Virus record (IMG/VR): IMGVR_UViG_3300020048_000035
DNA from: an uncultured virus (IMG/VR IMGVR_UViG_3300020048_000035)
Taxonomy: Duplodnaviria; Heunggongvirae; Uroviricota; Caudoviricetes
DNA: 64,000 nt
Strand: one strand, 5' to 3'
In this document: positions 1,005 through 18,430 of the stretch, piece after piece
Position numbering within the stretch: the first letter of the stretch is position 1
Layout of the letters: each line of letters opens with the position of its first letter
Position numbers and translations under genes: made by a program
The notes under the pieces: generated by a model
The model's database searches: none
What the model saw: only the letters and a program-made list of their open reading frames with translations
What the model was told of the DNA's origin: nothing

Positions 1005-1253
1005 TTATCTATTCCATTTTAATAAAAAAAATGCCATATCTTGTTCTTTTACAAAATAATAACAACCTGTTCTTGTGTGATTATAACTCCAATTCCACAC
1101 TCCTTCTTCTTCACCCCTAACACCAAATGTTTCTATACACCATGTGTATATAATATTTTCTTTCTTAGCCCTCCATCCTCCTTCTTTTACTTCGCTAGCC
1201 CAGTAGCGATAGGGACTGTCTAAGTCTGCTACTTCACCTGTTATAAATCTCAC
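1005..1253 (-). CDS. family A small protein
   Basis: ends EQDMAFFLLKWNR. Confidence 0.85.
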   Translation of the reverse strand: MRFITGEVADLDSPYRYWASEVKEGGWRAKKENIIYTWCIETFGVRGEEEGVWNWSYNHTRTGCYYFVKEQDMAFFLLKWNR

Positions 1254-1513
1254 GAATACCTCAACATAAGCATTATAGCATCTTCCTCGGATATTATACC
1301 ATCATCTACTTCTAATGTAAAAGTTTTATTTTCATGTACTCCTATGGTTAATGTCCATTTATCACCCTTTTTTCTATATATGTACTCTATGCGTGGTAAC
1401 CCACCATAATCAACTGACACTTTATCAATACATATGTTTGCGTCAGATCCTAAATTTTCTCTCACCCAATTCTCTACTTCATATTTCTTGTTTATATTAA
1501 GATTAAATTTCAT
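1250..1513 (-). CDS. family A small protein
   Basis: ends EEDAIMLMLRYS. Confidence 0.8.
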   Translation of the reverse strand: MKFNLNINKKYEVENWVRENLGSDANICIDKVSVDYGGLPRIEYIYRKKGDKWTLTIGVHENKTFTLEVDDGIISEEDAIMLMLRYS

Positions 1514-1908
1514 GACCACCTCAATGCCATTAGAGTATACAATGTGTTAGATATAGTATATTGCTCAAGAAAACTATCATTATCAATTGGTTTCCAAAGA
1601 GTAATATCCTGTTCTTCAATCCATCTGGCCACCTTAGGAGCTACATCTACCACGCAATAATCATTGGGTACAATATATTCGTGATCTGAAATAAGAGTAA
1701 AGTTTAATGCGTCAGGATATCTTACCCGCAAGGTAAAAATCTGCCCTGTTGGTCCAGTCATGGGTAGTACACCAACAAGTTGGCTGGCAATCATACTAGG
1801 CAAGGATTTTCGTAATATAGGCAATTTAATCTTAGAAAAACTTCCATACTTTGTTATCAGCTTGCGTAATGATACCCGCCTAGATAACCTTCTTTGATGG
1901 CTATTCAT
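1510..1908 (-). CDS. family A protein carrying a gp23 major-capsid (Gol-region) fragment
   Basis: LPILRKSLPSMIASQLVGVLPMTGPTGQIFTLRVRY; ends LMALRWS. Confidence 0.85.
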   Translation of the reverse strand: MNSHQRRLSRRVSLRKLITKYGSFSKIKLPILRKSLPSMIASQLVGVLPMTGPTGQIFTLRVRYPDALNFTLISDHEYIVPNDYCVVDVAPKVARWIEEQDITLWKPIDNDSFLEQYTISNTLYTLMALRWS

Positions 1909-2099
1909 TCTACAGAAGTCCACCTCAATAGAAAAAGGGTCAACAAAGGTTGCTCTTCTTCAGTTATATCAAGTATTATATATTTACGCCAATGGGGATC
2001 TGTAAACCACCAGCGTAAATTTTCTTTGCTGATGTTATCAGTTAGCCATTGAATCATTTCTAATTTTTTACTTTCATCACGAGGAACATTAATTACCAT
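1905..2099 (-). CDS. family A small protein
   Basis: ends TLFLLRWTSVE. Confidence 0.8.
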   Translation of the reverse strand: MVINVPRDESKKLEMIQWLTDNISKENLRWWFTDPHWRKYIILDITEEEQPLLTLFLLRWTSVE

Positions 2100-2296
2100 T
2101 ATGCCCACCTCAATGTAAAAAGCATAGCGTCTTGCTCTGATCCAAAGTGATAACACAGAGTATCATAACGGGTTATGAACATAGGATTCTCTTCACCACG
2201 AGGTGTCGATATAGTTCGTTTTTCAAAAGTAGGACAATTTTTCATTGCCCACGCAAAAGGTTCACTACCAGCAACGGAAGGCAATTTGACTATCAT
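2099..2296 (-). CDS. family A small protein
   Basis: ends EQDAMLFTLRWA. Confidence 0.85.
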   Translation of the reverse strand: MIVKLPSVAGSEPFAWAMKNCPTFEKRTISTPRGEENPMFITRYDTLCYHFGSEQDAMLFTLRWA

Positions 2297-2318
2297 TATG
2301 ACCACCTCAATGTAAAAA

Positions 2319-2591
2319 TCATGGCCAAAACACGAAGAAAAGTTGAGGATCATCGCTCCATGTCAATAGAAATGAATCAGCTTCAGCCTCAGACTGGAAT
2401 TCAACGTCATACATCATATAACAGTCATCTTCCCAAGTAGTCAGCTCCCAATTGATACTGATTTTAATATTAAAATACTCTTCCAATTGATCTATAATAA
2501 TTTGATTAAAATATGCCGTTGGCCAATTAGTGACCACTGACTGCGCAGCTTTGAATAGTACTTCAATTGATATATTACGCATAGCAGACAT
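2319..2591 (-). CDS. family A small protein with extended tail
   Basis: EAEADSFLLTWS then extra residues. Confidence 0.75.
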   Translation of the reverse strand: MSAMRNISIEVLFKAAQSVVTNWPTAYFNQIIIDQLEEYFNIKISINWELTTWEDDCYMMYDVEFQSEAEADSFLLTWSDDPQLFFVFWP

Positions 2592-2932
2592 TATGACCAT
2601 CTCAATAAAAAGAACTCTACATCTGCTTCACTGTGAAACATAATACGGTTACTGAATACAAAATAGCCATGTTTAAATGTTTCTTTACACCATGCTTCAA
2701 TCACATCTCTACCTGCTTCCTTAGCGGTATCAGAAAAATCTAGTTCTATCCAATGTTTTCTATCAGGATCTATCTCACATAGAACTTGCCAGTCAACCTC
2801 ATATTGAATATCTTGACTCAGGACGGTCAAAATCTCGGTTGCGCTATCAACTGTCCATCTAGCCGATAGCTTTCTTGATTTTGCTGTTATCTGTTGCTTT
2901 AATATTTCAATATTGTTATTAGAATTTGTCAT
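2591..2932 (-). CDS. family A protein carrying a second gp23-like capsid fragment
   Basis: IEILKQQITAKSRKLSARWT...EILTVLSQDIQYEVD; ends FFLLRWS. Confidence 0.85.
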   Translation of the reverse strand: MTNSNNNIEILKQQITAKSRKLSARWTVDSATEILTVLSQDIQYEVDWQVLCEIDPDRKHWIELDFSDTAKEAGRDVIEAWCKETFKHGYFVFSNRIMFHSEADVEFFLLRWS

Positions 2933-3213
2933 TATGTCGTCCACTTTAGTGACATTACTATATACAGCTCATTGGGTATAATATAACGATATCTTAATAT
3001 CGTGTACATCAATGATTCTGTTTGTGTCCATCCGCTGTGAGTTTTCTCAAGCCATCTGGCCACCTCTTCATCAACATCTACTTCAACATATCCAATTGGC
3101 ACTGTTGATCGTTTACCGTTTGGAGTTTTAATAGAAAATCTAAACTTTGGAAAAGTCTCTGCTCTGCCTTTATCTACTCCAGCTTGCCAAGTTATAGGGT
3201 GTGTAAGTTTCAT
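2932..3213 (-). CDS. family A small protein
   Basis: ends VMSLKWTT; C-half resembles 1510-1908. Confidence 0.8.
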   Translation of the reverse strand: MKLTHPITWQAGVDKGRAETFPKFRFSIKTPNGKRSTVPIGYVEVDVDEEVARWLEKTHSGWTQTESLMYTILRYRYIIPNELYIVMSLKWTT

Positions 3214-3452
3214 GACCATTTCAACATAAAAAATAATTGTGTTTCTTCATCTACATGCTCGTTTAATTCCATAGTAAAAGTTATGTTTTCTTTAGATATA
3301 TCAGGCGGCATATTGGTACAAAAATGCCATCCTTCTCCGCGAATACTAGATCCAGGAACACTTATCTTTGGTCCTATATTCTCCATGGTCCATTTAACAC
3401 AATCTATGGCACGATCACTATCGGTAAATGTTATCTTACTCATACTAATCAT
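3210..3452 (-). CDS. family A small protein
   Basis: ends FFMLKWS. Confidence 0.8.
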   Translation of the reverse strand: MISMSKITFTDSDRAIDCVKWTMENIGPKISVPGSSIRGEGWHFCTNMPPDISKENITFTMELNEHVDEETQLFFMLKWS

Positions 3453-3648
3453 GCCCCCACTTTATTCTAAATATTATAGCATCATACTCATTGGTAAACT
3501 CCAAATATGGTGTAAATGTTTTTCTAGGTAAACCAATTACTCCTTGCCCACTTAGCCAAGCGTGAAATTCTTCTATAGTACCAGGTGTGTGTTGAATGTA
3601 CCATGTGGTAGCATTAGCCCAATACGGTTCAATAGGTAGTGTAATCAT
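3445..3648 (-). CDS. family A small protein
   Basis: ends DAIIFRIKWGHD. Confidence 0.8.
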   Translation of the reverse strand: MITLPIEPYWANATTWYIQHTPGTIEEFHAWLSGQGVIGLPRKTFTPYLEFTNEYDAIIFRIKWGHD

Positions 3649-3860
3649 GAGTGTTTTAATAACCATAAGATAGATTCTGCTTCATCGTCAAATTTTAATT
3701 TTACCTGAGGCATATTATGTTCATCCATTTCCCAGTCTATTTCATAGTTACCAGGTAGTAATGATTTGAATAATTGAGACATGTCTGTTCGTGTGTGTTC
3801 ATCAAACGGTTCAAACGCATATGTTTGTGTTACTATATTCACTGCTTCAGTTACATTCAA
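3645..3860 (-). CDS. family A small protein
   Basis: ends ESILWLLKHS. Confidence 0.75.
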   Translation of the reverse strand: MNVTEAVNIVTQTYAFEPFDEHTRTDMSQLFKSLLPGNYEIDWEMDEHNMPQVKLKFDDEAESILWLLKHS

Positions 3861-4083
3861 GGTGACCCCACTTTAATCTAAACATCATGGCATTCTTTTC
3901 GTTTGTAAATTGCCATTTTATAGTTTCAAATTCTGGACCTCCGCGCCATCCATCACGAACAAAAGGTCCAAATGTATCACGGCACCAATAAAACTGTTTT
4001 ACATAACCAGAATGTGTTTTATATTCAACTACAACTTCATGCCGCCATCTCCTACGATCTACCCTGCGCTGATGACTATTCAC
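3847..4083 (-). CDS. family A small protein
   Basis: ends NAMMFRLKWGHLECN. Confidence 0.8.
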   Translation of the reverse strand: MNSHQRRVDRRRWRHEVVVEYKTHSGYVKQFYWCRDTFGPFVRDGWRGGPEFETIKWQFTNEKNAMMFRLKWGHLECN

Positions 4084-4355
4084 AGAAATTTCAACCTAAA
4101 CATGGTAGCTACTCTTTCATCTGCAATATCAACAAAGTATGACGTATAAGTTACTTGTTGTCCCTGTGATCCTGTATCATATATCACATGCTTAAACCAT
4201 TTCCACTCATCTCCGGTGTATATGCTGTTATCTAGATCACAGTTGACTGCAGGACCTACATTTTGTTCAAACCAAGATATCATTTGGCTTTTAATACTTT
4301 GTTTTTCTTTATGGCGCAATGGAAAACCCACTCGTTTCGTTATGTCAATTATCAT
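4080..4355 (-). CDS. family A small protein
   Basis: ends ATMFRLKFL. Confidence 0.8.
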   Translation of the reverse strand: MIIDITKRVGFPLRHKEKQSIKSQMISWFEQNVGPAVNCDLDNSIYTGDEWKWFKHVIYDTGSQGQQVTYTSYFVDIADERVATMFRLKFL

Positions 4356-4597
4356 AACCACCTCAATCTAAACATGGTAGCATATTCTTCACGAGCAAAG
4401 TACCATGTAGTCCAGCCAGTACCGCTACCACGACTACAAGTCCATGGATATTCTGCCGATACTTGATCACGGAACTCAGCTTTCGGTCCAAGCATGTTTA
4501 AGCACCAAGTCATCATAGAGTTTTCATAATCCGGTGATGGCCATTCGCCATAGGCTGATTTAAAAAACTGTGATGTCATAACTTCTGCTGCTATCAT
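4352..4597 (-). CDS. family A small protein
   Basis: ends ATMFRLRWL. Confidence 0.8.
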   Translation of the reverse strand: MIAAEVMTSQFFKSAYGEWPSPDYENSMMTWCLNMLGPKAEFRDQVSAEYPWTCSRGSGTGWTTWYFAREEYATMFRLRWL

Positions 4598-4863
4598 GAG
4601 TTCTGTAACAACCAAAATGTTTGTTCTTCATCGGACGTAAATTTCAATTGAAGTGGTACATGATATGATCCTCCGGGAGCTAAATTCACCTTTATTCCAG
4701 CAACTCCTGAAACATACCCCATCTTAGGAGAATCAATTCTGCGATTCCAGTATTCCTCAAATGTGAGGAAACAATCTTCGCTACTAATATCAGTACTATA
4801 GGTGTCAAACATTTCTCTAATTACGAGATACTGATTTAAATCACCAATCCACATTGTTGTCAT
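4594..4863 (-). CDS. family A small protein (divergent)
   Basis: ends EEQTFWLLQNS. Confidence 0.7.
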   Translation of the reverse strand: MTTMWIGDLNQYLVIREMFDTYSTDISSEDCFLTFEEYWNRRIDSPKMGYVSGVAGIKVNLAPGGSYHVPLQLKFTSDEEQTFWLLQNS

Positions 4864-5117
4864 TTTGATAATAACTCTAATAATTTTTTAGGTGTAATAA
4901 TATCTGATACTTCTTTGTTGCCAATTGGTACTAACTGACTTTCTTCTATAATCCAATCTGACATTACTGTGCCTTTTTTTATAGACAAAGTAATAAACTG
5001 TCTAAGACTTCCTATAGCAGGAAACTTTCTTCCCGTTTTAGACCAACCGCCATACCCAGGTGTACCAGTTCTATACAGCCCAGATGTTTTGCTACGAATT
5101 CTATAAAAAATTTCCAT
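4860..5117 (-). CDS. family B small protein
   Basis: Y..GTP...W...GRKF..I..LR.FIT motif. Confidence 0.75.
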   Translation of the reverse strand: MEIFYRIRSKTSGLYRTGTPGYGGWSKTGRKFPAIGSLRQFITLSIKKGTVMSDWIIEESQLVPIGNKEVSDIITPKKLLELLSK

Positions 5118-5127
5118 TAACTATATA

Positions 5128-5376
5128 TCATGCCCAATGTAATGCGAAAAATGTTGCTGCCGCACGGTCCCTAAAGTAAAACGCAGCACGGTACCGGCGT
5201 CCATCAGAAACATAATGCGTCTCCAACCTACCATGCCATGGTCGTTCTTTACTACCTTTGACAACACTAGGTCCAAAGTTAGCAATACACCATTTACGAA
5301 CGGCAGAATATTCAGTATATCCATAACCCGCAAATAATTTAGTATTAACTCGTTGATAAATTAATTCTCTTGTCAT
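5128..5376 (-). CDS. family A small protein
   Basis: ends AATFFALHWA; close paralog of 7095-7340. Confidence 0.8.
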   Translation of the reverse strand: MTRELIYQRVNTKLFAGYGYTEYSAVRKWCIANFGPSVVKGSKERPWHGRLETHYVSDGRRYRAAFYFRDRAAATFFALHWA

Positions 5377-5410
5377 AATGGTTTCATTTTAACATTACTT
5401 AACTGTAAGG

Positions 5411-5641
5411 TCAAGAATTTCTTCGCTTTTTCCATGTGTAATCTTCACCGCTTGGCAGCTTGCCATTCTCTACACTATCGCAGCCCATACGGCCTACTTG
5501 GTTAGGATTCTCACCTACCATAGCAACATATGCCATACCTAGGGTACGCATATGATTGGCACGAGTAAGTGCTTCAACCATTTCTAAATACTCTTCACTC
5601 TTTGCGGCTCCATCTTCTGAAGTCCAATACACTTTATACAT
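5411..5641 (-). CDS. hypothetical phage protein
   Basis: ORF in operon context. Confidence 0.7.
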   Translation of the reverse strand: MYKVYWTSEDGAAKSEEYLEMVEALTRANHMRTLGMAYVAMVGENPNQVGRMGCDSVENGKLPSGEDYTWKKRRNS

Positions 5642-5647
5642 TTCTTC

Positions 5648-5953
5648 TCATTTATACAATTTCAGTTGCCGAACAATTTCGGGCCACTCCTTTCTAGGAG
5701 CTAATACAACTGCTACTTCTTCGCCGTTCAGCGCACTTTCTGATACTACAACAACTTTATCTAACTGTTTAAGTTGTTCAAATTCTTCGTCAGTAACTTT
5801 ACAAGTTACCTTTTTAAAACTATACAGCATCCAGTCTTGAAAGTCAACATCATCCATATGCCACTTAAGATAAGCTATTAAGCTGGCATGACTTGCGCTG
5901 TTGATAGCAAATCCAACTGGAATACTATCACGGATAGCAATGTACATTTTCAT
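5648..5953 (-). CDS. peptidyl-tRNA hydrolase PTH2-like protein
   Basis: KMYIAIR...G.A...HAS...W...SFKKVTCKV...P. Confidence 0.7.
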   Translation of the reverse strand: MKMYIAIRDSIPVGFAINSASHASLIAYLKWHMDDVDFQDWMLYSFKKVTCKVTDEEFEQLKQLDKVVVVSESALNGEEVAVVLAPRKEWPEIVRQLKLYK

Positions 5954-6201
5954 ATTGACTTACTCTTTAGTTTAATCCACATGAATTCTTCCAGATCAAC
6001 TTTTTCTGTTAATGTACCAACATGCCTATTCTTCACAAACCTGATATTACTCCCACTCTGCATCCATATACGCTCTGAGCCATGTATCACACGACTTTTA
6101 CCGTGAGACCACCCAACATCGCTAGCTTTATAAGTCACATACCTAGGCATCTTTAACATTTTAGCGGTACTTTCGTGTAATTCACAATACACTTGTTCCA
6201 T
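5950..6201 (-). CDS. hypothetical phage protein
   Basis: coupled ORF. Confidence 0.65.
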   Translation of the reverse strand: MEQVYCELHESTAKMLKMPRYVTYKASDVGWSHGKSRVIHGSERIWMQSGSNIRFVKNRHVGTLTEKVDLEEFMWIKLKSKSI

Positions 6202-6202
6202 A

Positions 6203-6403
6203 TTATTCCTTTGGTTTAATTCTAAGACGCCAGGTAATTACTTGACCATCCATGGTTGTACAATCATCTATATACCAATCAGGACGTTCTACATCCATCC
6301 ACTCAAACTGTGTTATACCACTACCAGTCCAATACACTTGAATGATGGCACCGTCTGCCCATGCGTGAATTAATTCAGCATATTTGTGTTTAATCATGCC
6401 CAT
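6203..6403 (-). CDS. hypothetical phage protein
   Basis: HK.AELI.AWADGA.IQ...P.W....RIKP; resembles 27748-27948. Confidence 0.7.
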   Translation of the reverse strand: MGMIKHKYAELIHAWADGAIIQVYWTGSGITQFEWMDVERPDWYIDDCTTMDGQVITWRLRIKPKE

Positions 6404-6639
6404 TTTAACATAAAAAATATATAATCCTTTTCGTCCCTAAATCGTAAAGTAGAGTAGGACTGACTCCATCGTGCCCATGCATCAGTAATTGGGTTCGCGG
6501 GTTCAAATTGTTCGGTACACCATTCAAGCATTGCCTGTACTCTATCTTGATTGACTGGCCTTGCGGGAAATGGCTCCCACATTTCGTACTCATACCATTT
6601 AACACGATGAAATTGATACTTAGGTTTAGTGTTATTCAT
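6394..6639 (-). CDS. family A small protein
   Basis: ends EKDYIFFMLKWA. Confidence 0.85.
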   Translation of the reverse strand: MNNTKPKYQFHRVKWYEYEMWEPFPARPVNQDRVQAMLEWCTEQFEPANPITDAWARWSQSYSTLRFRDEKDYIFFMLKWA

Positions 6640-6907
6640 GCCCACTCCACTTTAGGGCAAAGAATACAGCATCTTCTTCTCGCTTAAAATAAAAACAATT
6701 AGACGAATAGCCATAAGTTTCACATTCAAAATGTTCACCACACCAGCTCCATCGTATATACCATGTATTATTAGTATCATCCATGGGTGATTTTATTCCA
6801 TAGGGATATTTCTCTATCATTTCTTGCTCCATTCGCATCTCGGCCATAACCCTGTCGTGATCTATCTGCCACAATTCGTGTTGATTTTGGTATTCTTGGT
6901 CTGTCAT
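6632..6907 (-). CDS. family A small protein
   Basis: ends EEDAVFFALKWSGHE. Confidence 0.85.
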   Translation of the reverse strand: MTDQEYQNQHELWQIDHDRVMAEMRMEQEMIEKYPYGIKSPMDDTNNTWYIRWSWCGEHFECETYGYSSNCFYFKREEDAVFFALKWSGHE

Positions 6908-7098
6908 TTCCATCTCAATATAAACATTGTAGCATCTTTTTCATGATTAAAGTAAACTTTTCCTGCGCCAATTGTCCAGCCATTCTCACGACCCGATTGC
7001 CCCCAAGTTTCAACACACCAGGCAAAACAATCACGCCATTTAACACTACCGTTTACGGGTGGCAACGGTACAGAATACCATTCGTCTATTTTTTTCAT
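6904..7098 (-). CDS. family A small protein
   Basis: ends EKDATMFILRWK. Confidence 0.85.
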   Translation of the reverse strand: MKKIDEWYSVPLPPVNGSVKWRDCFAWCVETWGQSGRENGWTIGAGKVYFNHEKDATMFILRWK

Positions 7099-7340
7099 GA
7101 CCACCTCAGGGAAAATAATGTGGCACAAGCAGGATCTCGGAAACAAAAGCGTGATGCCCGCACAAATTCTGAGCCATCGTGATACCAGTCTTTGCGACCA
7201 TACCAAGGATTTTGGTAACCAAGATCCTTGGCTTTCTTGCTGTTACTAGCGCCAAAGTTTTCCTTACACCATTTTCGCATGGTTAAGTGTTCTTTTTGAT
7301 TGTACAGTCTAGGTACAATCACTTTAGTATAAATTATCAT
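7095..7340 (-). CDS. family A small protein
   Basis: ends ATLFSLRWS. Confidence 0.85.
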   Translation of the reverse strand: MIIYTKVIVPRLYNQKEHLTMRKWCKENFGASNSKKAKDLGYQNPWYGRKDWYHDGSEFVRASRFCFRDPACATLFSLRWS

Positions 7341-7525
7341 GACCACCTCAAAGTAAACATTGTAGCATCTTCTTCTCTAGTAAAGTATATACCATGTCCG
7401 CCGCGAGAGTAATTGCCATAGCCCTCGTGCGTTTCAAGCCATGAAATCATTTCATTTGTTAACCAAGGTACAGAAACATAAGTTTCTTCTGCGCCGCCAA
7501 AACTAATAAAATTAATATTTTTCAT
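7337..7525 (-). CDS. family A small protein
   Basis: ends EEDATMFTLRWS. Confidence 0.85.
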   Translation of the reverse strand: MKNINFISFGGAEETYVSVPWLTNEMISWLETHEGYGNYSRGGHGIYFTREEDATMFTLRWS

Positions 7526-7782
7526 TTCATCCACCTCAACGCAAATAATATAGCATCTTGCTCGTGATCAAATGAAAATTTATATACAGCATGGTCGCGT
7601 CCTCTGCCATCATATATACATTGCCATACACCATGTTGCCCAAAGGTTAGCCTTTCTACAATACTAAATCTTATTCCAAACTGTTCTTGACACCATGAGC
7701 ACATTCTTTCAATATCAACATTGGATTTGGATTGTATTAAAACTTCATGTGTCAATCTGGGTTTTAGGACAACTGTAATCAT
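7522..7782 (-). CDS. family A small protein
   Basis: ends EQDAILFALRWMK. Confidence 0.85.
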   Translation of the reverse strand: MITVVLKPRLTHEVLIQSKSNVDIERMCSWCQEQFGIRFSIVERLTFGQHGVWQCIYDGRGRDHAVYKFSFDHEQDAILFALRWMK

Positions 7783-8022
7783 GCCCATCTCAACGCAAAC
7801 ATCACAGCATCAGCACGATTTTTAAATGNNNNNNNNNNCGGGATTCCATCCATCATATTTCCACTGTTTTGATTCTAAATTCTCGCGGCACCATAGTACC
7901 CTTGGATCCATTTTTTCTGGATCATCCGTAATATATTTGCGCCATGTGGGCAATGCCAACTCAAAGCACACAAGGGGTAATCGTATTACACATGGCCAAC
8001 GATCTCGTTCTCGTAAACTCAT
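7779..8022 (-). CDS. family A small protein (spans N gap)
   Basis: after the gap reads FKNRADAVMFALRWA*. Confidence 0.7.
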
Positions 8023-8237
8023 GCCCACCTCAACATAAAAAATATAGCATCTTCTTTGGTTTTAAATCTCCAAACTAATCCATGGCTAACACAAGACTCT
8101 TCTCCAAATGTATCCACACACCATGCGTCTATATTGCCGCTTCCTACCGCAATTAAACTGCCACCAGGTCCGCAGTACTTGACACGATGCGGCCAGACAC
8201 TACCTGGATATGAACTAAGTGAATATTCAAGTATCAT
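8019..8237 (-). CDS. family A small protein
   Basis: ends KEDAIFFMLRWA. Confidence 0.85.
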   Translation of the reverse strand: MILEYSLSSYPGSVWPHRVKYCGPGGSLIAVGSGNIDAWCVDTFGEESCVSHGLVWRFKTKEDAIFFMLRWA

Positions 8238-9036: not shown

Positions 9037-9305
9037 TATGACCACCTCAATAAAAATAAGGTCAACGCTTGTTCAGAAGCAAACTCAAGCGCAAACCAAT
9101 CGTCAATAATAGTAATGCCATATTCTTCCCACCACCATTGTTTCATTACACTCATATGCGGCCCTGTTGGCGGAGTACCTTTTTTCTTCAACACAGCAAA
9201 GTGTGCGTTTTGAAATGCCCTCTGAATAGTATTAGTTACAATAATCACACCAGAAGTGGGATAAGGCCAATTATACATAGTGCCTACCGGTATAGTAAGA
9301 GTCAT
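9036..9305 (-). CDS. family A small protein
   Basis: ends TLFLLRWS. Confidence 0.85.
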   Translation of the reverse strand: MTLTIPVGTMYNWPYPTSGVIIVTNTIQRAFQNAHFAVLKKKGTPPTGPHMSVMKQWWWEEYGITIIDDWFALEFASEQALTLFLLRWS

Positions 9306-9493
9306 GCCCATTTCAACCTATACATTGTAACATCAGCAGTATTTTTAAAGGCCGGTTTACCAGAGCTAATATAACCCAGTTTTCCAGGGTTAATATATCG
9401 ACAATCATCAGTTCCAAATGTGCTAAGTGCCCATAAGACTCTTAAGGGCCAATCCAATTCAACTGGAAACTCAATTATAGTCCAATCATCCAT
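9302..9493 (-). CDS. family A small protein
   Basis: ends DVTMYRLKWA. Confidence 0.8.
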   Translation of the reverse strand: MDDWTIIEFPVELDWPLRVLWALSTFGTDDCRYINPGKLGYISSGKPAFKNTADVTMYRLKWA

Positions 9494-9496
9494 TAT

Positions 9497-9691
9497 TCAA
9501 TTCCATCTCAATACAAACATTAACATACTGTTTTTATCAGTAAACTCAATGTAAGCAATATGTCCTGTGGCATCCAATCCAGCAAAGTACCATGTGCCAT
9601 CACTTAAAGTCTGGTGACACCATTGTACTACATGACTATAGGTATGTTTAGTAATTTCTAATTTTACAGTGAATATTTTCATATCATCCAT
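9497..9691 (-). CDS. family A small protein
   Basis: ends LMFVLRWN. Confidence 0.8.
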   Translation of the reverse strand: MDDMKIFTVKLEITKHTYSHVVQWCHQTLSDGTWYFAGLDATGHIAYIEFTDKNSMLMFVLRWN

Positions 9692-9693
9692 TG

Positions 9694-9867
9694 CTAACCC
9701 CACTTCAAAGCAAACATTATAGCATCTTTTTCATGCTTAAACATAAATCCTTCAAAATTATGATCCCAATCCATTAAAGGTATGTTGCTTCTACACCACT
9801 GACACTCTTGCGTACTAACTTTTCCACCAGAGATGGGCACCAGAGTCCATTGCTTAATGATCATCAT
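9694..9867 (-). CDS. family A small protein (57 aa, below track cutoff)
   Basis: MMIIKQW...QWCRSN...FKHEKDAIMFALKWG*. Confidence 0.8.
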   Translation of the reverse strand: MMIIKQWTLVPISGGKVSTQECQWCRSNIPLMDWDHNFEGFMFKHEKDAIMFALKWG

Positions 9868-10130
9868 TAATTAACTCTTAGCATTAGCATAGTTAACATT
9901 GATTCCGACTTAACATAAATGTAATACGGTGTATATTCATCTGATTTACTCTTATTGCCAAATTTAATTGTCCATGAATTACCCTTAGTATACCAGTTTT
10001 CACCGTACATTTTACGCATAGCCTCTTCATATGGATTTATTATACGAGGCTCCCAACGAGACCATCTCATAGCATGAGTATAGCCTTCTTTGTACATACT
10101 ATATCTTTTATCTAGTTTAATTATTTTCAT
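9867..10130 (-). CDS. family A-related protein, tandem duplicate
   Basis: MKIIKLDKRYSMYKEGY...ESMLTMLMLRVN. Confidence 0.8.
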   Translation of the reverse strand: MKIIKLDKRYSMYKEGYTHAMRWSRWEPRIINPYEEAMRKMYGENWYTKGNSWTIKFGNKSKSDEYTPYYIYVKSESMLTMLMLRVN

Positions 10131-10516
10131 GATTTAACTCTAAGCATTAACATGGTTAACATTGATTCATCCTTAAGATAAATGTAGTATGGAGTGACAC
10201 CTGCTTTACTTCTAGAAGATCCATATGCGGCTCGCCATGGATTGCCAGTGGAATATCTAGAACCACCGTACATTTCCTGCATGGCTTGTTCATAAGGAAC
10301 TACCTCACGACAATAACCTTCATTCCATCTAAGGGCGTGTTTATACCCTTCGCGGTACATGCTAAATCGTCCATTTAATTTAATTATTTTCATTTTGTTC
10401 TTGGTATTACGGATTACATAAAGTTTAGGTGACGGCTGTCTTTGTCGTATCTTGAATATTACTTCACTATCTTTCACTATCTGGTTTATTAAATGTGCTT
10501 GGCGATCTTTCATCAT
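10127..10516 (-). CDS. family A-related protein, tandem duplicate (alternative start 10393)
   Basis: MKIIKLNGRFSMYREGY...ESMLTMLMLRVKS. Confidence 0.75.
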   Translation of the reverse strand: MMKDRQAHLINQIVKDSEVIFKIRQRQPSPKLYVIRNTKNKMKIIKLNGRFSMYREGYKHALRWNEGYCREVVPYEQAMQEMYGGSRYSTGNPWRAAYGSSRSKAGVTPYYIYLKDESMLTMLMLRVKS

Positions 10517-10710
10517 ACCCATCTCAATAGGTAAAATGTTAAATCCTGTTCGTCACGAAAGCATACTAGATCGTTCAATCGCCACCACCGAGCACCTTTT
10601 AACCAAGCATTGCCATACTCCATGGCTGTGGCTGGACCAAACTGTTCTTCACACCATTCAAGACACTCCCTCCACCCGCGATCTTCAGGTAATTTTGCGG
10701 TATACATCAT
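10513..10710 (-). CDS. family A small protein
   Basis: ends EQDLTFYLLRWV. Confidence 0.85.
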   Translation of the reverse strand: MMYTAKLPEDRGWRECLEWCEEQFGPATAMEYGNAWLKGARWWRLNDLVCFRDEQDLTFYLLRWV

Positions 10711-10898
10711 ACCCACTTTAATGAAAACATTATTGCTGCCTGTTCATCTGTGAATAGATAACGTAAATATCCTTGATGAGTGAGTTCATATTTCCAGTCT
10801 TGTAAATATTTCAATTGTAAATGATCTGTTATCCAAATTCCCATCTTAGTCCTATCCATACGATCTTTGCTGTGCAGCACCATAACCTCGTATTTCAT
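10707..10898 (-). CDS. family A small protein
   Basis: ends AAIMFSLKWV. Confidence 0.85.
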   Translation of the reverse strand: MKYEVMVLHSKDRMDRTKMGIWITDHLQLKYLQDWKYELTHQGYLRYLFTDEQAAIMFSLKWV

Positions 10899-11290
10899 GT
10901 CCACTTTAAAGTAATCATTATAGCATCTTCATCCGAATTTGTCGCAACAAATACACGATCTTCACCGCCTATTCCGGTTAGGTGCCAACGCTTATCCCAT
11001 TGACTACGCACGACTCGTTCTAATCGCCAGACACAGTTTTCACCTAGCGATCTTTGTGGCCAGAAATACGGAAGAGCATCACGATGTGGAACCCAGTCTA
11101 ATCCGGCATCCCACAAAAATCTGTTAGGATCTACTTCAATAACATGCTTAAAGTTCTCAAACATGTTGGTAATATCATGTGCCCTCCAGTTGACATTGGT
11201 ATTGTACCAAGCCTCCCATTCACGCTCTGTTCGGCTTTTACCTGTGCGCCATGTTATCCAACGATCTTTTATCTCATCAAGCAATTTCAT
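10895..11290 (-). CDS. family A protein with long N-terminal part
   Basis: ends DEDAIMITLKWT. Confidence 0.85.
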   Translation of the reverse strand: MKLLDEIKDRWITWRTGKSRTEREWEAWYNTNVNWRAHDITNMFENFKHVIEVDPNRFLWDAGLDWVPHRDALPYFWPQRSLGENCVWRLERVVRSQWDKRWHLTGIGGEDRVFVATNSDEDAIMITLKWT

Positions 11291-11469
11291 TATGACCACT
11301 TCAATACAAATAATGTTTCTTGTTCTGGCACTTTAAATGAAATATTTCCATTTTCAATAGTTCCACCGTACGAGTGGATACACGCATCAACGCCTTCTAT
11401 GGTACATGTGCCCTTTTGATTGAACACATGCCACATTATCTTATATTGATAATCATTGAATTTTAGCAT
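11290..11469 (-). CDS. family A small protein
   Basis: ends TLFVLKWS. Confidence 0.8.
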   Translation of the reverse strand: MLKFNDYQYKIMWHVFNQKGTCTIEGVDACIHSYGGTIENGNISFKVPEQETLFVLKWS

Positions 11470-11693
11470 TACGACCACTTCAATAAAAATAAAGTAAAAT
11501 CCTGTTCACTGTTAAACTCTAACATAACACCTTCTCCCTCACGAATTACATATTCTGCGTGATATGGCGTTAATGCTTCGTTTACACTATCNNNNNNNNN
11601 NGTCCATTGGTTTGGTATTGATGTTAGAAAGTTTTGAAAACATGGTGGAGAGTCTTTTATGTAATGCCTTCCTAAAAATACGCTATATGTCAT
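11469..11693 (-). CDS. family A small protein (spans N gap)
   Basis: ends EQDFTLFLLKWS. Confidence 0.75.
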   Translation of the reverse strand: MTYSVFLGRHYIKDSPPCFQNFLTSIPNQWXXXXDSVNEALTPYHAEYVIREGEGVMLEFNSEQDFTLFLLKWS

Positions 11694-11914
11694 GACCACC
11701 TCAACAAAAATAAAGTCAAATCCTCAGGCCAATCAAATTGAAATTTTACACCATCACCGTTAGGCAGTTTATCTATATACCAATTAAACCCTTGTTCAGA
11801 ACACCATCCTTGCATTTCTTTTACACGAGCTACCCAATCCATAAATTCTCTTGCAGAAAAAGATGTACTATCAGTTGAAGTTGGTTTAAGAAAAATATAT
11901 TCTGGTTTCATCAT
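11690..11914 (-). CDS. family A small protein
   Basis: ends EDLTLFLLRWS. Confidence 0.85.
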   Translation of the reverse strand: MMKPEYIFLKPTSTDSTSFSAREFMDWVARVKEMQGWCSEQGFNWYIDKLPNGDGVKFQFDWPEDLTLFLLRWS

Positions 11915-12093
11915 GCCCACCTCAGAGCAAATAGCACAGCATCTCGCTTAAAACGAATGCGCCATGTACCGTTAATCCGACCCCATGATATACCATGGGC
12001 ATCTATGTTTTCTCTACACCACGGAGAGATTATTGTCCACTCATCATAAGCAGGTTGAGCTTTAATTTTATAACGGAAATGTCGTATAGCCAT
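11911..12093 (-). CDS. family A small protein
   Basis: ends DAVLFALRWA. Confidence 0.85.
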   Translation of the reverse strand: MAIRHFRYKIKAQPAYDEWTIISPWCRENIDAHGISWGRINGTWRIRFKRDAVLFALRWA

Positions 12094-12094
12094 T

Positions 12095-12376: not shown

Positions 12377-12424
12377 AATTTTGTCCTATTTTAATAGTAA
12401 TTGTAATTGAGGACGAATTAATTG

Positions 12425-12637
12425 TCAACTGAATTTTAATAAAAATAAGGTAGCAGCAGTCTCGGAGGGAAATTCAACGGTATAATTCCACTTAACTGTT
12501 TGAATTATTTCATATTCTTTAATTTTAATATTATATTCCTGTTCCATAGTTGCGAGAAAATTACTTTCATCAGGTTCATTAATCATTTTCCACGCATTAA
12601 ACATGGTAAATCCCGATACTTCAACCGTATAAGCCAT
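12425..12637 (-). CDS. family A small protein (F-type)
   Basis: ends AATLFLLKFS. Confidence 0.85.
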   Translation of the reverse strand: MAYTVEVSGFTMFNAWKMINEPDESNFLATMEQEYNIKIKEYEIIQTVKWNYTVEFPSETAATLFLLKFS

Positions 12638-12840
12638 TAAGCAAACCTTAATAAAAACATTATAGCATCAGCCTCAGATTTAAAATCAATGATAAATCCC
12701 GAATCCCTCATCGCATAGTCTATACCAAATATATTATATGCTAATTGAAGCCGCTTAAAATCTATGGGTAATTCTTCACCAGGCTTTAATAATGCCTTAG
12801 CAGCTATACCATATGAACGATTAGTTACATTAACTTTCAT
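12637..12840 (-). CDS. family A small protein (F-type)
   Basis: ends EADAIMFLLRFA. Confidence 0.85.
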   Translation of the reverse strand: MKVNVTNRSYGIAAKALLKPGEELPIDFKRLQLAYNIFGIDYAMRDSGFIIDFKSEADAIMFLLRFA

Positions 12841-12841
12841 A

Positions 12842-13057
12842 TTAATTAAACTTTAAGGCAAACATACTGGCTACTGGATGACGCTTAAACTTAAATTTAG
12901 CGACCAAGGCAGTATAGTCAAGAGACTGAGCAGGAGCCCAATCCCATTGCCAGTCGGTGTACTGAATCCCAGCATTATCTTCGCACCATTCCATCATAGC
13001 CGTTAGTTTAGGTACATAATTACCCATGTCTGGAAACGTAATTACAACTGAACTCAT
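12842..13057 (-). CDS. family A small protein (F-type)
   Basis: ends ASMFALKFN. Confidence 0.85.
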   Translation of the reverse strand: MSSVVITFPDMGNYVPKLTAMMEWCEDNAGIQYTDWQWDWAPAQSLDYTALVAKFKFKRHPVASMFALKFN

Positions 13058-13251
13058 TACGAAAATCTCAGTAAAAATAGGGTTGCATCAGCATCATATG
13101 AAAATTCAAGAGTAAACCCATGAACGTGGTTATGTACACTGGTTATATTATAGGCAGCAAGGAATTCTGACTTACTAGGATTACCATGCTCAGGGTCATT
13201 CAGTGATTCGATGGCCAGCATAAATGTCTCATGGGATACACTAACTTTCAT
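13057..13251 (-). CDS. family A small protein (F-type)
   Basis: ends DADATLFLLRFS. Confidence 0.85.
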   Translation of the reverse strand: MKVSVSHETFMLAIESLNDPEHGNPSKSEFLAAYNITSVHNHVHGFTLEFSYDADATLFLLRFS

Positions 13252-13466
13252 TACGAAAACCTTAAGGAAAACATAATTGCCACAGCCTCATCTGAAAATT
13301 CAAACCATATTCTAGTTAAATCATCAGTGTGAAAATCCCAATACCATGCGCCGAATTCCGCATTTTCCTTACACCATGTTACCATATGTTCAATCGGAGG
13401 ATCAAGCGAATCTTGTTTACTCAACAAGAAATCAGTCATGGTAACTGTAACTCTATGAGTTTTCAT
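13251..13466 (-). CDS. family A small protein (F-type)
   Basis: ends AIMFSLRFS. Confidence 0.85.
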   Translation of the reverse strand: MKTHRVTVTMTDFLLSKQDSLDPPIEHMVTWCKENAEFGAWYWDFHTDDLTRIWFEFSDEAVAIMFSLRFS

Positions 13467-13693
13467 GAAAACCTCAATAAGAATAAGGTAGCATCAGCCT
13501 CAGATGAAAATTCAATATAATCAGATCCCGCAAGATTCTTACAATTCCATTTAGCCAATGAGTCATTAAGACGGTCATCTCCCAGCTGTATTAGATTATA
13601 TGCTTCAAGAAAGTTAATCCACCATGCCATATATCTTTCCTTCCAACCATCTCGGCCTTCTCTATCTTTAAATACGGAAATTTTATATGTCAT
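13463..13693 (-). CDS. family A small protein (F-type)
   Basis: ends EADATLFLLRFS. Confidence 0.85.
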   Translation of the reverse strand: MTYKISVFKDREGRDGWKERYMAWWINFLEAYNLIQLGDDRLNDSLAKWNCKNLAGSDYIEFSSEADATLFLLRFS

Positions 13694-13694
13694 T

Positions 13695-13958
13695 TTAACT
13701 AAACCTCAATAAAAATAAAGTCATATCCTCTTCATGCTTAAATTTAATATGACTGCCAAAGTATACCGCTGAATATGGTCGCAATCCTGCATCTATATTT
13801 TGATGCGTACCTCCTGCAATGTGTCTTACCGTGGGTACAGTATGAAGAAAATTATTCCAAATTTGATTCCTATAAAGAGTCTGCGAGTCGTAAGACCTTA
13901 CATCAAGTTTATATGGATATATTAATTCATATGTTTTTAATGATAAAGCATTAGGCAT
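13695..13958 (-). CDS. family A small protein (F-type)
   Basis: ends EEDMTLFLLRFS. Confidence 0.85.
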   Translation of the reverse strand: MPNALSLKTYELIYPYKLDVRSYDSQTLYRNQIWNNFLHTVPTVRHIAGGTHQNIDAGLRPYSAVYFGSHIKFKHEEDMTLFLLRFS

Positions 13959-14215
13959 TACGACCACCTAAGTAAAAATAAGGTTGCGTCAGCATTATTC
14001 TCAAACCTCAATTTAAAAGCAAGATCACCATGGGTTCTTTTATTCATATACATGTCAAGAATAGGGCGTATATCAATACCCGCCCGTTTCATGGCCTGCT
14101 CTCGTTCTGGAAATTCACGGGGTAAGGTGTCATTAAATTTGGTCCACCATTCATTAAACACTAACACGCCATCACGATTTCTATGTGGTTTCCGTATGTC
14201 TAATAATATTGCCAT
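13958..14215 (-). CDS. family A small protein
   Basis: ends NADATLFLLRWS. Confidence 0.85.
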   Translation of the reverse strand: MAILLDIRKPHRNRDGVLVFNEWWTKFNDTLPREFPEREQAMKRAGIDIRPILDMYMNKRTHGDLAFKLRFENNADATLFLLRWS

Positions 14216-14216
14216 G

Positions 14217-14474
14217 TTAACTAAACCTCAATAAAAAGAATGTTCTATCACTTTCAGTCTTAAATCTAAAATACTCAAACAACATTATAGCATTATATTC
14301 GCTTTTAAGAGTATAATTCAGCATGGAATCTGGTCTATACCATGCCACATTGTCCGGCATACTATTAAGGAATTTATCAAATATCCGAGTAGTCTCCTTA
14401 TAGTTGGAATCACCTTGATAGTCAAATGCTTTTAATGTATGGGGATATTCTTGTTCCAATATAGGATCTCTCAT
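14217..14474 (-). CDS. family A small protein (F-type)
   Basis: ends ESDRTFFLLRFS. Confidence 0.85.
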   Translation of the reverse strand: MRDPILEQEYPHTLKAFDYQGDSNYKETTRIFDKFLNSMPDNVAWYRPDSMLNYTLKSEYNAIMLFEYFRFKTESDRTFFLLRFS

Positions 14475-14719
14475 TACGAAAACCTCAATAAAAATAAGGT
14501 GGCATCTTCATCCTGCTCAAACGAAACATACCCTCTGTTAACTCCATATGTAGCACCCCATTTAGCAAGTTCATTTGCTAACGTAGGAGTATTAGGAATA
14601 AAGTCACCACCTAGATAACGATAAAAATTCAATAATACAGGATTATACACCATATAACTACCGAGATTTGGATCCTTCGATATTGGGCCTCGAACATTTA
14701 AAGGTATTTTAGTGGCCAT
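14474..14719 (-). CDS. family A small protein (F-type)
   Basis: ends DEDATLFLLRFS. Confidence 0.85.
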   Translation of the reverse strand: MATKIPLNVRGPISKDPNLGSYMVYNPVLLNFYRYLGGDFIPNTPTLANELAKWGATYGVNRGYVSFEQDEDATLFLLRFS

Positions 14720-14720
14720 A

Positions 14721-14960
14721 TTAACTAAATTTCAATAAAAAGAACGTGGCACCAGCCTCATCTACAAACTTAATTTTATAAGTTTTAACCCAGATATCGT
14801 CCTCAACAATAGGTATAATAGCAACAATACTGTGTTCATTCCTGAGAAATTGTCTAAATTCATGACTTAAAGTACTATATCCTTCATTAGGATGTTCTTT
14901 ATAATAAAGATTCCTAGCTAAATCAAGTGATTTTATCGGCACTATACAATCTACAGTCAT
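14721..14960 (-). CDS. family A small protein (F-type)
   Basis: ends GATFFLLKFS. Confidence 0.85.
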   Translation of the reverse strand: MTVDCIVPIKSLDLARNLYYKEHPNEGYSTLSHEFRQFLRNEHSIVAIIPIVEDDIWVKTYKIKFVDEAGATFFLLKFS

Positions 14961-15205
14961 TATGAAAACCTCAATAAAAACATTAATAAATCTGACTCGT
15001 GCTTAAACCTAAGTCCACTAGTAGTCCTAACAGCATTATACTGTATATCCAGAATACGGTCAACCGCTTCCGTTTTATCGTAAGTAAGTCCCTCGTATGG
15101 TACATTATCAAGGAAATTGCGCCAATACCGATTATACTGCATCACATCTCGTTGATTAATAGAATAGGGATATTCTACAAATAACTTTAAGGATATATCT
15201 TTCAT
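14960..15205 (-). CDS. family A small protein (F-type)
   Basis: ends ESDLLMFLLRFS. Confidence 0.85.
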   Translation of the reverse strand: MKDISLKLFVEYPYSINQRDVMQYNRYWRNFLDNVPYEGLTYDKTEAVDRILDIQYNAVRTTSGLRFKHESDLLMFLLRFS

Positions 15206-15206
15206 A

Positions 15207-15464
15207 TTAAGCGTATTTTAATAAAAATGCGGTTCTTTCAATATCAGACTCAAACATTAAATTTAAGTTTTCACGTTTATAGTCAAAATCCTTAGCATGT
15301 ACATCGGGATATGTGGCATTATATTTCTTTTTTAATGCCGTACGAACATATGATCCATTAGAATACATTCCGTTACCCCTGCGATCACGGTGTCGTTTAA
15401 TAAAGTTTTTAACATATGACTTCCTCTCATGGGTTTCATCATAAATGGGTAATATATATTTCAT
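15207..15464 (-). CDS. family A small protein
   Basis: ends ERTAFLLKYA. Confidence 0.8.
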   Translation of the reverse strand: MKYILPIYDETHERKSYVKNFIKRHRDRRGNGMYSNGSYVRTALKKKYNATYPDVHAKDFDYKRENLNLMFESDIERTAFLLKYA

Positions 15465-15466
15465 AA

Positions 15467-15691
15467 TTAAGCGAATTTTAATAAAAATAAAGTACAATCG
15501 GTTTCGGAGTCAAATGTAACAGGCCAATATTGTTGAAACGTAGTACCAAGATCATTAATTGTTAATCCATATGCTGTTTTCAGATCACGTTTCCAATCTA
15601 CAATATGATCCCATTTAGGATCATGTGGCCGCAAAAACGGAATACTTGCCTTATTAATAATGTCATAATGAATTGTAGTGGTAAATGTCAT
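15467..15691 (-). CDS. family A small protein (F-type)
   Basis: ends ETDCTLFLLKFA. Confidence 0.85.
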   Translation of the reverse strand: MTFTTTIHYDIINKASIPFLRPHDPKWDHIVDWKRDLKTAYGLTINDLGTTFQQYWPVTFDSETDCTLFLLKFA

Positions 15692-15692
15692 A

Positions 15693-15944
15693 TTAACTAA
15701 ACCTCAATAAAAAGAATGTACGATCCTGTTCTTTGGCAAACTCCAAATAATGTAATCCAACATGCGGGCTGGCTTGATTTTTATATGTACAATTAAATTT
15801 ATTCACAAGAATTCTTTTAGTGAAATCATTAAACGCATACCCCCTGTCTGGATCTAAATTCTGCCCAAGAAAACTCTGCATATATGATGCTAAACCATAA
15901 CTTTTGTATTCTTCACTGAACGTAAAAACTGGTAATTTATGCAT
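15693..15944 (-). CDS. family A small protein (F-type)
   Basis: ends EQDRTFFLLRFS. Confidence 0.85.
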   Translation of the reverse strand: MHKLPVFTFSEEYKSYGLASYMQSFLGQNLDPDRGYAFNDFTKRILVNKFNCTYKNQASPHVGLHYLEFAKEQDRTFFLLRFS

Positions 15945-16195
15945 TATGAAAACCTCAATAAAAATAAAGTCCTATCACTGGCACTATAAAAAGTAATAGA
16001 GTCAGACTTTCCATCCCACACAGCTCCGTATTCTAGACATTTAGCAATTAATCGCTGAGCAATAGCTTTATCAGCATAATGTACCCCGTATGGAAATTCA
16101 GTCACACTTTTATAAAAATTCATCCACGCAGGATGTACATGACTCCAATCCGGATCTGGCGGGATTCTCCAATTCTTAAGCTCCATGCGTATCAT
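15944..16195 (-). CDS. family A small protein (F-type)
   Basis: ends ASDRTLFLLRFS. Confidence 0.85.
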   Translation of the reverse strand: MIRMELKNWRIPPDPDWSHVHPAWMNFYKSVTEFPYGVHYADKAIAQRLIAKCLEYGAVWDGKSDSITFYSASDRTLFLLRFS

Positions 16196-18428: not shown

Positions 18429-18430
18429 CC

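Follow-up and report, generated by a model that had tools for sequence, protein, structure and literature searches.

The 64,000-nucleotide DNA of an uncultured virus in the Caudoviricetes (IMG/VR IMGVR_UViG_3300020048_000035), referred to as the window, carries an array of 57 small paralogous open reading frames (ORFs) on its minus strand between positions 1005 and 16195. The evidence for its anatomy is good, and the best explanation is that single-gene cassettes of one undescribed protein family make up a very large accessory region in an uncultured aquatic myophage related to T4. As to function, we tentatively infer that the cassettes form a repertoire of small binder proteins used early in infection, either to take over the host or to counter its defences, a reading that we regard as possible, though somewhat short of probable. 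The coordinates, the strand and the approximate number of paralogs given in a first-pass annotation of the same DNA are all correct, and its remark that such an expansion is exceptional for a phage is borne out by 57 genes in 15 kb. The ORFs are 57-137 amino acids long when called from the first start codon, and the array is laid out as follows.

1005..16195, minus strand: the whole array, 57 small paralogs and six interspersed non-members, read from high to low coordinates
12425..16195, minus strand: upstream block of 16 members with an LRF tail, NF...YN fronts, mostly TAA stops and lower GC
6394..12093, minus strand: middle block of 25 members with an LRW tail and a WC..FG...W core, including the modelled gene 10513-10716
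1005..5376, minus strand: downstream block of 16 members with an LRW tail, with a gene of a second small family (4860-5117) inside
5411..6403, minus strand: island of four non-family genes within the array, of which 5648-5953 is PTH2-like

The genes are packed end to end and in that sense abut, as the first-pass annotation had it, but the run is interrupted by six non-members (4860-5117, 5411-5641, 5648-5953, 5950-6201, 6203-6403 and 12095-12376), and three or four members lie outside its range. Similarly, the W(C)..FG...W core that had been described upstream of the tail is found in the genes at 1005-12093 but not in the 16 genes at 12425-16195, which have NF...YN fronts instead. Junctions in this upstream block consist of a one-base overlap or a gap of 1-2 bases.

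The 57 ORFs share a C-terminus that reads ..F.F..E.DA..F.L[RK][WF]x-stop. A profile of this 19-residue tail matches 54 of the 654 six-frame ORFs of the window, 53 in the array and one at 43912-44124, with no match on the plus strand and none when the residues of the same ORFs are shuffled; because the profile was made from 51 of the tails that it matches, these numbers measure specificity only and are no independent discovery. Four listed members are missed by the profile: 2319-2600 has an extension after the tail, 3645-3860 and 4594-4863 have the degenerate endings WLLKHS and WLLQNS, and 7822-8028 is N-masked (five 10-base runs of N are masked in the window, and three of them cut array genes). 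A second profile, made mostly from metagenomic relatives, recovers 38 array members together with 43706-43945, 43912-44124 and 49272-49607. The gene 44114-44401 is probably a fourth family outlier, which brings the family in the window to at least 60 copies, 57 in 15 kb and three or four outside the array:

43706..44401, minus strand: outlying members 43706-43915, 43912-44121 and probably 44114-44401, adjoining a ClpP-like gene (44838-45428)
49272..49601, minus strand: divergent outlying member with an altered C-terminus (family profile E 7e-8)

The first-pass annotation recognised no named family, and database comparisons agree. Pfam gave no family-domain match, nor any SUKH/Imm or nucleic-acid-binding match at E <= 0.01-0.05, for the 61 window members scanned (57 in the array and four outliers). 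PHROGs gave no match for 16 window members and one weak match among 121 aligned members, and no published description of the family was found in the literature. Comparison of a sequence profile with PDB had a best E of 0.1 (Skp1), which is not significant.

The shared small alpha/beta scaffold that had been proposed is supported by AlphaFold2 models of one member from each subtype, which have the same core order. The model of 10516-10710 (121 sequences; pLDDT 87, pTM 0.71) runs strand, helix, low-confidence loop, two strands, helix. That of the upstream-block member 14960-15205 (47 sequences; pLDDT 84, pTM 0.71) adds an N-terminal helix and splits the middle helix. According to these models the family core is a three-stranded sheet packed on helices and ending in a strand and an amphipathic helix, and the tail is predicted to be this last strand and helix, closing the fold. 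In BFVD the two models have some 15 viral neighbours in common, all uncharacterised, and neither has a significant solved relative: the best Foldseek hit in pdb has E 1.1 (model 1 only), and the best VIA Z scores are 5.1 (model 1) and 3.3 (model 2), where 7-8 is stated as typical for the best hit without a true match. The best structural rows, at this noise level, are KH, RRM, ACT and related two-layer alpha/beta domains.

The residues kept in at least 90% of the sequences of the WC-type profile (A2) are W19, C20, W42, F51, F60, L62 and W64, all hydrophobic. The commonest residues of the tail are likewise mostly hydrophobic, with E, D and R/K as exceptions, and R or K is found at 49 of 55 positions. 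At the N-terminus only M1 is conserved in an alignment of 53 sequences (A1), which contains no shared targeting leader of the kind found in T4 internal and capsid-targeted packaged proteins. Profile-profile comparison of the LRW and LRF subtypes aligns only the last 19 columns, with a probability of 97.7%. Beyond the common elements the proteins differ considerably: the pI ranges from 4.1 to 10.5 and the net charge from -12.5 to +13.7, and 31 of 53 members are acidic. Tryptophan makes up 4.3% of the residues in family members. A transmembrane-like stretch is found in one of 53 members and depends on a doubtful upstream start. Prediction of self-association between two copies of the family domain scored 0.01, which carries no weight either way. 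None of 537 fronts matched any of 708 long ORFs as a captured piece of a longer protein, which is weak evidence because the 1.5 Mb of fetched DNA is poor in structural genes.

The junctions between the cassettes are short and have a common form. Among 64 genes there are 63 junctions, of which 19 are ATGA overlaps, 17 are one-base overlaps (TAATG or TGATG) and 15 are gaps of 0-15 bases; 51 of the 63 thus overlap or are separated by no more than 15 bases. Seven junctions have no nearby ATG, implying GTG or TTG starts. The consensus is TTA TTG AGG TGG TCA TGA or ...AGG TTT TCA TAA TG, of which the following is an example.

8234..8251, minus strand: junction TTATTGAGGTGGTCATGA, reading Leu-Leu-Arg-Trp-Ser-stop, with a Shine-Dalgarno-like GAGGT and the next ATG overlapping the TGA stop

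The last codons of the tail are biased to form the ribosome-binding site of the next gene. AGG is used for the tail Arg in 24 of 32 cases compared with 29 of 217 in gene bodies (p = 2e-12), TTG for the tail Leu in 30 of 50 compared with 52 of 278 (p = 8e-9), and AAG for the tail Lys in 10 of 19 compared with 65 of 242 (p = 0.03). GAGG(T) sits 5-8 bases ahead of the ATG of the next gene, and a strong duplex with the anti-Shine-Dalgarno sequence (-6 kcal/mol or stronger) can form before 24 of 57 starts compared with 8.5% of random positions. Third positions are free in the upstream codons of the tail, in keeping with real, maintained genes, and constrained in the last three. The terminal L-R-W or R/K-W codons thus appear to be held, in addition to any role in the protein, at the RNA level as the ribosome-binding site of the next gene. 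Conserved RNA structure was not found at the junctions: RNAalifold on 51 of them gives no pairs, and single folds of the same 51 have a mean z of 0.1 with only one below -2.

The cassettes are maintained by selection, and their content changes between relatives one gene at a time. Comparison of 90 ortholog pairs between the window and four related contigs gives a pooled dN/dS of 0.31 (0.34 for the fronts and 0.23 for the last 22 residues), compared with 0.18 for neighbouring genes (21 pairs). Only three of the 90 pairs have a ratio above 1, and in each of them dS is very small. Values this far below 1 indicate maintained protein-coding genes and not a hypermutating library, and the diversifying library suggested in the first-pass annotation does not hold in the sense of fast positive selection. 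The best pairwise scores between paralogs are 23-53 bits, except for the duplicate pair 9867-10130 and 10127-10522 at 106 bits.

Comparing array content and order between related phages had been proposed as a check, and whole-gene gain, loss and reordering are what such a comparison reveals. The DNA of contigs L141 and L143-L146 runs collinear with that of the window, with a nucleotide identity of about 75-95% (L147 has the same matches as L146), and relative to the window whole genes are present or absent, replaced or locally transposed. For example, L146 lacks the window stretch 2563 -> 1031, and six members are gone, including a gene with a capsid fragment that is described below. L139 and L142 have orthologs of 11290-11478, 7522-7788, 2591-2944 and 10513-10716 in that order, which differs from the order in the window, and with very uneven identity. 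The ends of similarity blocks (n=126) fall near a family stop codon, 54% within 15 bases and 74% within 30 bases, compared with 12% and 23% expected at random; values this high never arose in 2,000 randomisations. Downstream ends lie at the stop and upstream ends 15-40 bases into the preceding tail. Exchange via the tails fits this placement, and homologous recombination may be the mechanism.

Genes of a different kind are also found between array members. L145 (17363-18202 and 14898-15707) and L146 (18103-18942 and 15673-16479) carry inserted genes of 268-279 amino acids that have no Pfam match; the window has no genes at those places. These insertions suggest that larger foreign genes, too, enter at cassette boundaries.

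The family is widespread. A profile search of 1.84 billion representative proteins yielded at least 1,900 clusters at E <= 1e-3 (best 1.7e-10). The best 150 of the 1,900 clusters are all 51-143 amino acids long; most have the domain at the C-terminus or adjacent to it, and tandem fusions account for a few. A word-indexed search and the ESM Atlas returned only metagenomic or viral entries named hypothetical protein, and one Atlas cluster has 6,418 members. Related loci were gathered with a single member and a 15-base DNA motif from the junctions. The motif is present in at least 138 viral loci, and among the matches listed 118 of 138 contain members of the family, in same-strand clusters with one opposite-strand match in one contig (L064/L065). 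The largest count among the loci listed is 17 members in 7.8 kb, and the contigs are up to 333 kb long. Among cultured phages, members occur in jumbo phages: the A2 profile has 33 matches in Sinorhizobium phage Phosso (best 1.2e-12), three in Pseudomonas phage Cassandra (best 3.4e-8) and four weak ones in Atu_ph07, a jumbo Agrobacterium phage, with none in Melnitz-3 or HTVC008M. Gene 0044 of Cassandra, a phage of the PA5oct type, is 100% identical to EST35_0247 of phage PA5oct. Near-identical DNA for the whole array was not found among cultured phages, nor was any found by tblastn with one LRF-type member.

Two promoter candidates of the sigma-70 type stand out:

12400..12428, minus strand: internal promoter TTGACA-17-TACAAT, in the sole 48-base gap
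17434..17462, minus strand: promoter TTGACA-17-TACAAT, preceding the gene that opens the run (ATG at 17401)

Neither hexamer of the internal site varies among the five sequences aligned, those of the window and of four relatives. Within 1-19 kb the five sigma-70 matches that score best, each with 11 of 12 positions, all lie on the strand of the array. The T4 late-promoter motif TATAAATA does not occur in the array and occurs twice in the window, which is below chance. Four copies of a 25-base direct repeat, CCACTGTTGTATCCATACCACTGTG, lie at 17677-17818 in non-coding DNA between gene 17899-18204 and the first promoter of the array. Parts of the array are found in 20 listed sequencing runs, all of DNA, and these come from aquatic, lake or freshwater metagenomes.

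The small size of the proteins, a conserved core of hydrophobic residues only, varied surfaces, sigma-70-type promoters, the accessory setting and a gene-wise turnover under purifying selection together lead to the reading of early, non-enzymatic binders. Each cassette would encode a soluble protein of about 60-130 residues on the common core. What varies from member to member would be the surfaces, the loop that follows the first helix and the extension at the N-terminus, and the members would act as stoichiometric binders, each with a different target in the host or in a rival phage. The array would be transcribed from host sigma-70-type promoters into a few long messages that are then translated in a chain. 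The tail would have three roles. It would complete the protein fold; its preferred TTG AGG TGG/TTT codons would provide a Shine-Dalgarno sequence for the next ATG, which lies 5-8 bases further on and overlaps or adjoins the stop; and, as the sole stretch common to all cassettes, it would be the point where relatives gain, lose and reorder whole genes.

Several observations weigh against this reading. Promoter-like sites are not enriched overall (79 compared with 80.1 in shuffled sequence), so the case for early timing comes from a small number of strong sites plus a conserved one, and none of the 21 runs listed is an RNA run holding the locus. Detectable sequence similarity between the two subtypes is limited to the last 19 residues, and their models were compared by core order. 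Neighbouring members are only a little more alike than distant ones (mean 17.5 compared with 9.1 bits; Spearman -0.21) and the whole array contains a single recent duplicate pair, which suggests that the expansion is old or assembled by exchange and that a recent arms race is not evident. Finally, the accumulation of block ends at the tails may partly arise from alignments that run into the conserved tail of any neighbour; the placement indicates that the unit of change is one gene and does not establish the mechanism.

A recurrent subclass of members carries pieces of the T4-type major capsid protein in front of the family domain. Two such genes are found among the 57 array members.

1510..1923, minus strand: member with a fragment of the T4-type major capsid protein in front (residues 28-72), matching Pfam Gp23 (PF07068) positions 3-47
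2591..2944, minus strand: member with a weak front match to a later piece of the capsid protein (Gp23 positions 134-170, 21.5 bits, below the cut-off)

The match of 1510-1923 to Pfam Gp23 scores 42.9 bits (cut-off 24.4), and the fragment aligns to residues 96-131 of T4 gp23 (E = 2e-4). The 137 amino acids of this protein cover only positions 3-47 of the 376 in Gp23, and the remainder is a complete family domain, so that by its sequence the gene product is a fragment fusion and not a capsid protein. The same layout is shared by P0134 (40.1 bits), P0065 (27.8 bits) and L139 1299-1724 (55 bits). In L139 the last-mentioned gene is followed by the ortholog of 2591-2944, which matches Gp23 positions 135-194 with 24.2 bits against the cut-off of 24.4, and the two capsid pieces thus stand in capsid order. 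A local profile finds the layout in seven further fetched contigs besides the window, with matches of 112-165 amino acids that all end in the family tail except for one truncated ORF. In one ESM Atlas cluster Pfam Gp23 is found on 13% of the members.

A review of T4 (PMC3014915) describes Gol, a stretch of 29 residues within the first quarter of gp23, as the most conserved part of that protein and states that it binds EF-Tu and sets off the Lit protease. The capsid segment of 1510-1923 likewise falls in the first quarter of gp23 and corresponds to the beginning of the Pfam Gp23 profile, and by alignment it probably overlaps the Gol segment. Unlike Gol within gp23, it makes up a small protein together with the family domain and is not part of a capsid protein. 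A bolder form of the binder reading can be built on this subclass. The tail would be a coding-embedded plug, serving as fold closure, ribosome-binding site and crossover site in an integron-like counter-defence repertoire that works without an integrase. Populations of phages could then draw on a common pool of thousands of small binders, trading them as single-gene cassettes, and the subclass would present an EF-Tu-binding, Gol-like segment as bait or decoy for capsid-sensing immunity. We consider this combination unlikely.

Three other explanations appear to be considerably less likely than the main binder reading, and about equally so. The first-pass annotation had suggested docking on one partner through the terminal helix, and an adaptor model of this kind, in which all members dock on a common partner via that helix while the variable fronts recruit cargo or targets, is rather improbable. 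It would agree with the tail being the only part common to all members and the one most constrained between orthologs, and with the retention of a basic residue. However, the conserved residues of the WC type are hydrophobic, in the models the tail forms the terminal strand and helix, the ribosome-binding site accounts for the R/K-W codons as well, and no candidate gene for a common partner is found alongside the arrays. Docking is therefore neither shown nor needed.

It is just as doubtful that the proteins belong to the virion, being packaged in the head, decorating it or assembling it in the manner of the paralogous head families of other jumbo phages. The recurrent capsid-fragment subclass, in the window and seven other contigs and in the Atlas cluster, would suit such a role, and so would the position of some members next to ClpP-like or head-protease genes in the window and in Cassandra. 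Against it stand the lack of a shared N-terminal leader, the absence of the T4-type late motif from an array with promoters of the sigma-70 type, and the restriction of capsid fragments to two array members. EST35_0247 of PA5oct also lacks the ESI-MS/MS note that three neighbouring genes carry, which is a weak hint in the same direction.

The array could also reflect mostly selfish or neutral proliferation, with tail and ribosome-binding site as a self-propagating module for recombination and translation and most of the proteins doing little. Gain, loss and reordering by cassette, the lack of a known domain or motif and a selection somewhat relaxed compared with neighbouring genes are compatible with this, yet a dN/dS well under 1 in fronts and tails alike, confident models with a conserved fold, and the persistence of the family in very distant phages of Pseudomonas, Sinorhizobium and freshwater hosts make it no more plausible than the two preceding models. 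Least likely of all are nucleic-acid-binding regulators, a small RRM/KH/ACT-like module binding specific RNAs or DNA sites, since the structural rows and the aromatic residues conserved on the strands that would point to them are offset by noise-level Z scores, by the acidic nature of most members and by the lack of any nucleic-acid-binding match in Pfam.

The array resembles several known systems without belonging to any of them. Integron arrays consist of same-strand single-gene cassettes with a content that varies between relatives and with boundaries at a repeated element. The array shares the variable cassette-wise content and the boundaries at a repeat, but it has no attC-like inverted repeat at the junctions and all its cassettes are homologous to one another. 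An integrase was not found among 27 larger ORFs of the window scanned against PHROGs. Polyimmunity loci of the SUKH and Imm types are tandem sets of small paralogs that presumably confer immunity by neutralising different protein toxins. They have in common with the array long same-strand runs of small, divergent, non-enzymatic alpha+beta proteins, and differ from it in that no array member matches SUKH or Imm families and in that its setting is a lytic phage, theirs a toxin locus of bacteria. The window showed no toxin-like gene, though no dedicated test of toxin linkage was made.

A close parallel is offered by the hyperplastic regions of T4-like phages, where PeSL elements mediate the shuffling of small, variable, early-type genes (Comeau, Arbiol and Krisch 2014, PMC4122927). 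PeSLs are intergenic modules of a promoter and a stem-loop between unrelated genes. Both kinds of region have clusters of small variable genes between conserved blocks and a short boundary repeat that marks exchange points, and the concentration of block ends at the tails of the array corresponds to exchange at a repeated element (74% of 126 block ends compared with 23%). Unlike the PeSLs, the repeat of the array lies inside coding sequence (the last 19 codons), carries a ribosome-binding site instead of a promoter and joins cassettes of one family. The array does not have a stem-loop at each boundary (51 junctions, no conserved pairs), nor an early promoter at each intergenic boundary (51 of 63 junctions overlap or have a gap of at most 15 bases; 79 compared with 80.1 promoter-like sites).

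Large expansions have been described in other jumbo phages. Bacillus phage G has about 35 copies of a zinc ribbon, a lineage-specific expansion (Iyer et al. 2021, PMC7824862), and resembles the window in having one small domain in dozens of copies in a large phage genome. Compared with that expansion, the array has a different fold, no metal-binding pattern and a higher copy number, is strictly tandem and translationally coupled, and belongs to a family found across many phage lineages. PhiKZ has a paralogous family of head or inner-body proteins (gp92-97, 153, 162 and 163, with a PF12699 C-terminus) that are described as processed by the head protease and in some cases injected, several copies being individually dispensable (bioRxiv 10.1101/2025.11.23.690004). 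Jumbo-phage paralogs with a conserved C-terminal part and variable fronts are common to both. The array differs in having no Pfam match or shared leader and in having sigma-70-type promoters.

A second small family accompanies the array and has five members of about 85-100 amino acids.

16192..17074, minus strand: three genes of the second family (about 95-100 amino acids), heading the run and ending ..SHTMGLLR..

The other copies are 12095-12376 and 4860-5117 (both minus strand). The members are 33-39% identical to the first, with the consensus FYVI...GTP...ARKFK.I.EIR.FIT...W.IE...SHTMGLLR, and the copies each head a sub-block of the array directly after a promoter-like site. The family is conserved in related contigs and has no Pfam or PHROG match. 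Of the non-family genes in the island, 5648-5953 (minus strand, 101 amino acids) encodes a fragment or homolog of a PTH2-like peptidyl-tRNA hydrolase (24.2 bits, cut-off 23); Atu_ph07 likewise encodes an archaeal-type peptidyl-tRNA hydrolase close to its ClpP gene.

Individual proteins of the window are closest to those of the marine T4-related myophages Melnitz and HTVC008M (35-48% identity), and a ClpP-like gene is closest to Atu_ph07 (65% identity). A 681-amino-acid membrane-anchored protein resembling adenylate/guanylate cyclases (50103-52148, plus strand) is also present in Melnitz (42%) and HTVC008M (35%). Three genes of the window encode GIY-YIG-type homing endonucleases: 24670-25461 and 33589-34278 on the minus strand, both with internal 51-base (17-residue) tandem repeats, and 45489-46271 on the plus strand, located between two ClpP-like genes (44838-45428 and 46325-46903).

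The reading direction of the array points away from a divergent region on the plus strand, at about 19.9-40 kb. This region (about 19900-40000) is poor in ORFs, has a higher GC content (44-48%) and contains repeated near-consensus sigma-70 promoter modules in 6-10 copies per family, with TTGACA-17-TATAAT or TATACT, often a short hairpin and AGGAG, each before a tiny ORF. These modules and tiny genes make the whole left 40 kb look like early accessory DNA. Stop-codon recoding was considered for the ORF-poor 18-40 kb and rejected, since no code opens long frames, and no tRNA or Rfam family that would explain this part was found. A 13-base tandem repeat (ATTTCGCGCACAC and variants, occurring in either orientation) forms four clusters, at 18279-18447, 27028-27142, 36555-36734 and 37372-37483. 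They are about 9 kb apart, are flanked by a conserved element of about 84 bases (19364, 19466, 28032 and 37536) and could be protein-binding iterons.

With at least 1,900 clusters the family has no annotation, and about 60 copies are found in one phage. Small phage proteins are a source of many host-takeover and anti-defence functions, and this family is also present in tractable cultured phages, namely the PA5oct type of Pseudomonas PAO1 and Sinorhizobium phage Phosso with its 33 copies. The capsid-fragment subclass offers a concrete lead on capsid sensing and EF-Tu. One short coding segment that is selected at three levels, for the fold, for the downstream start and as exchange boundary, would be a compact case of overlapping codes, and the architecture suggests how a virus may co-express a long run of genes while swapping them singly.

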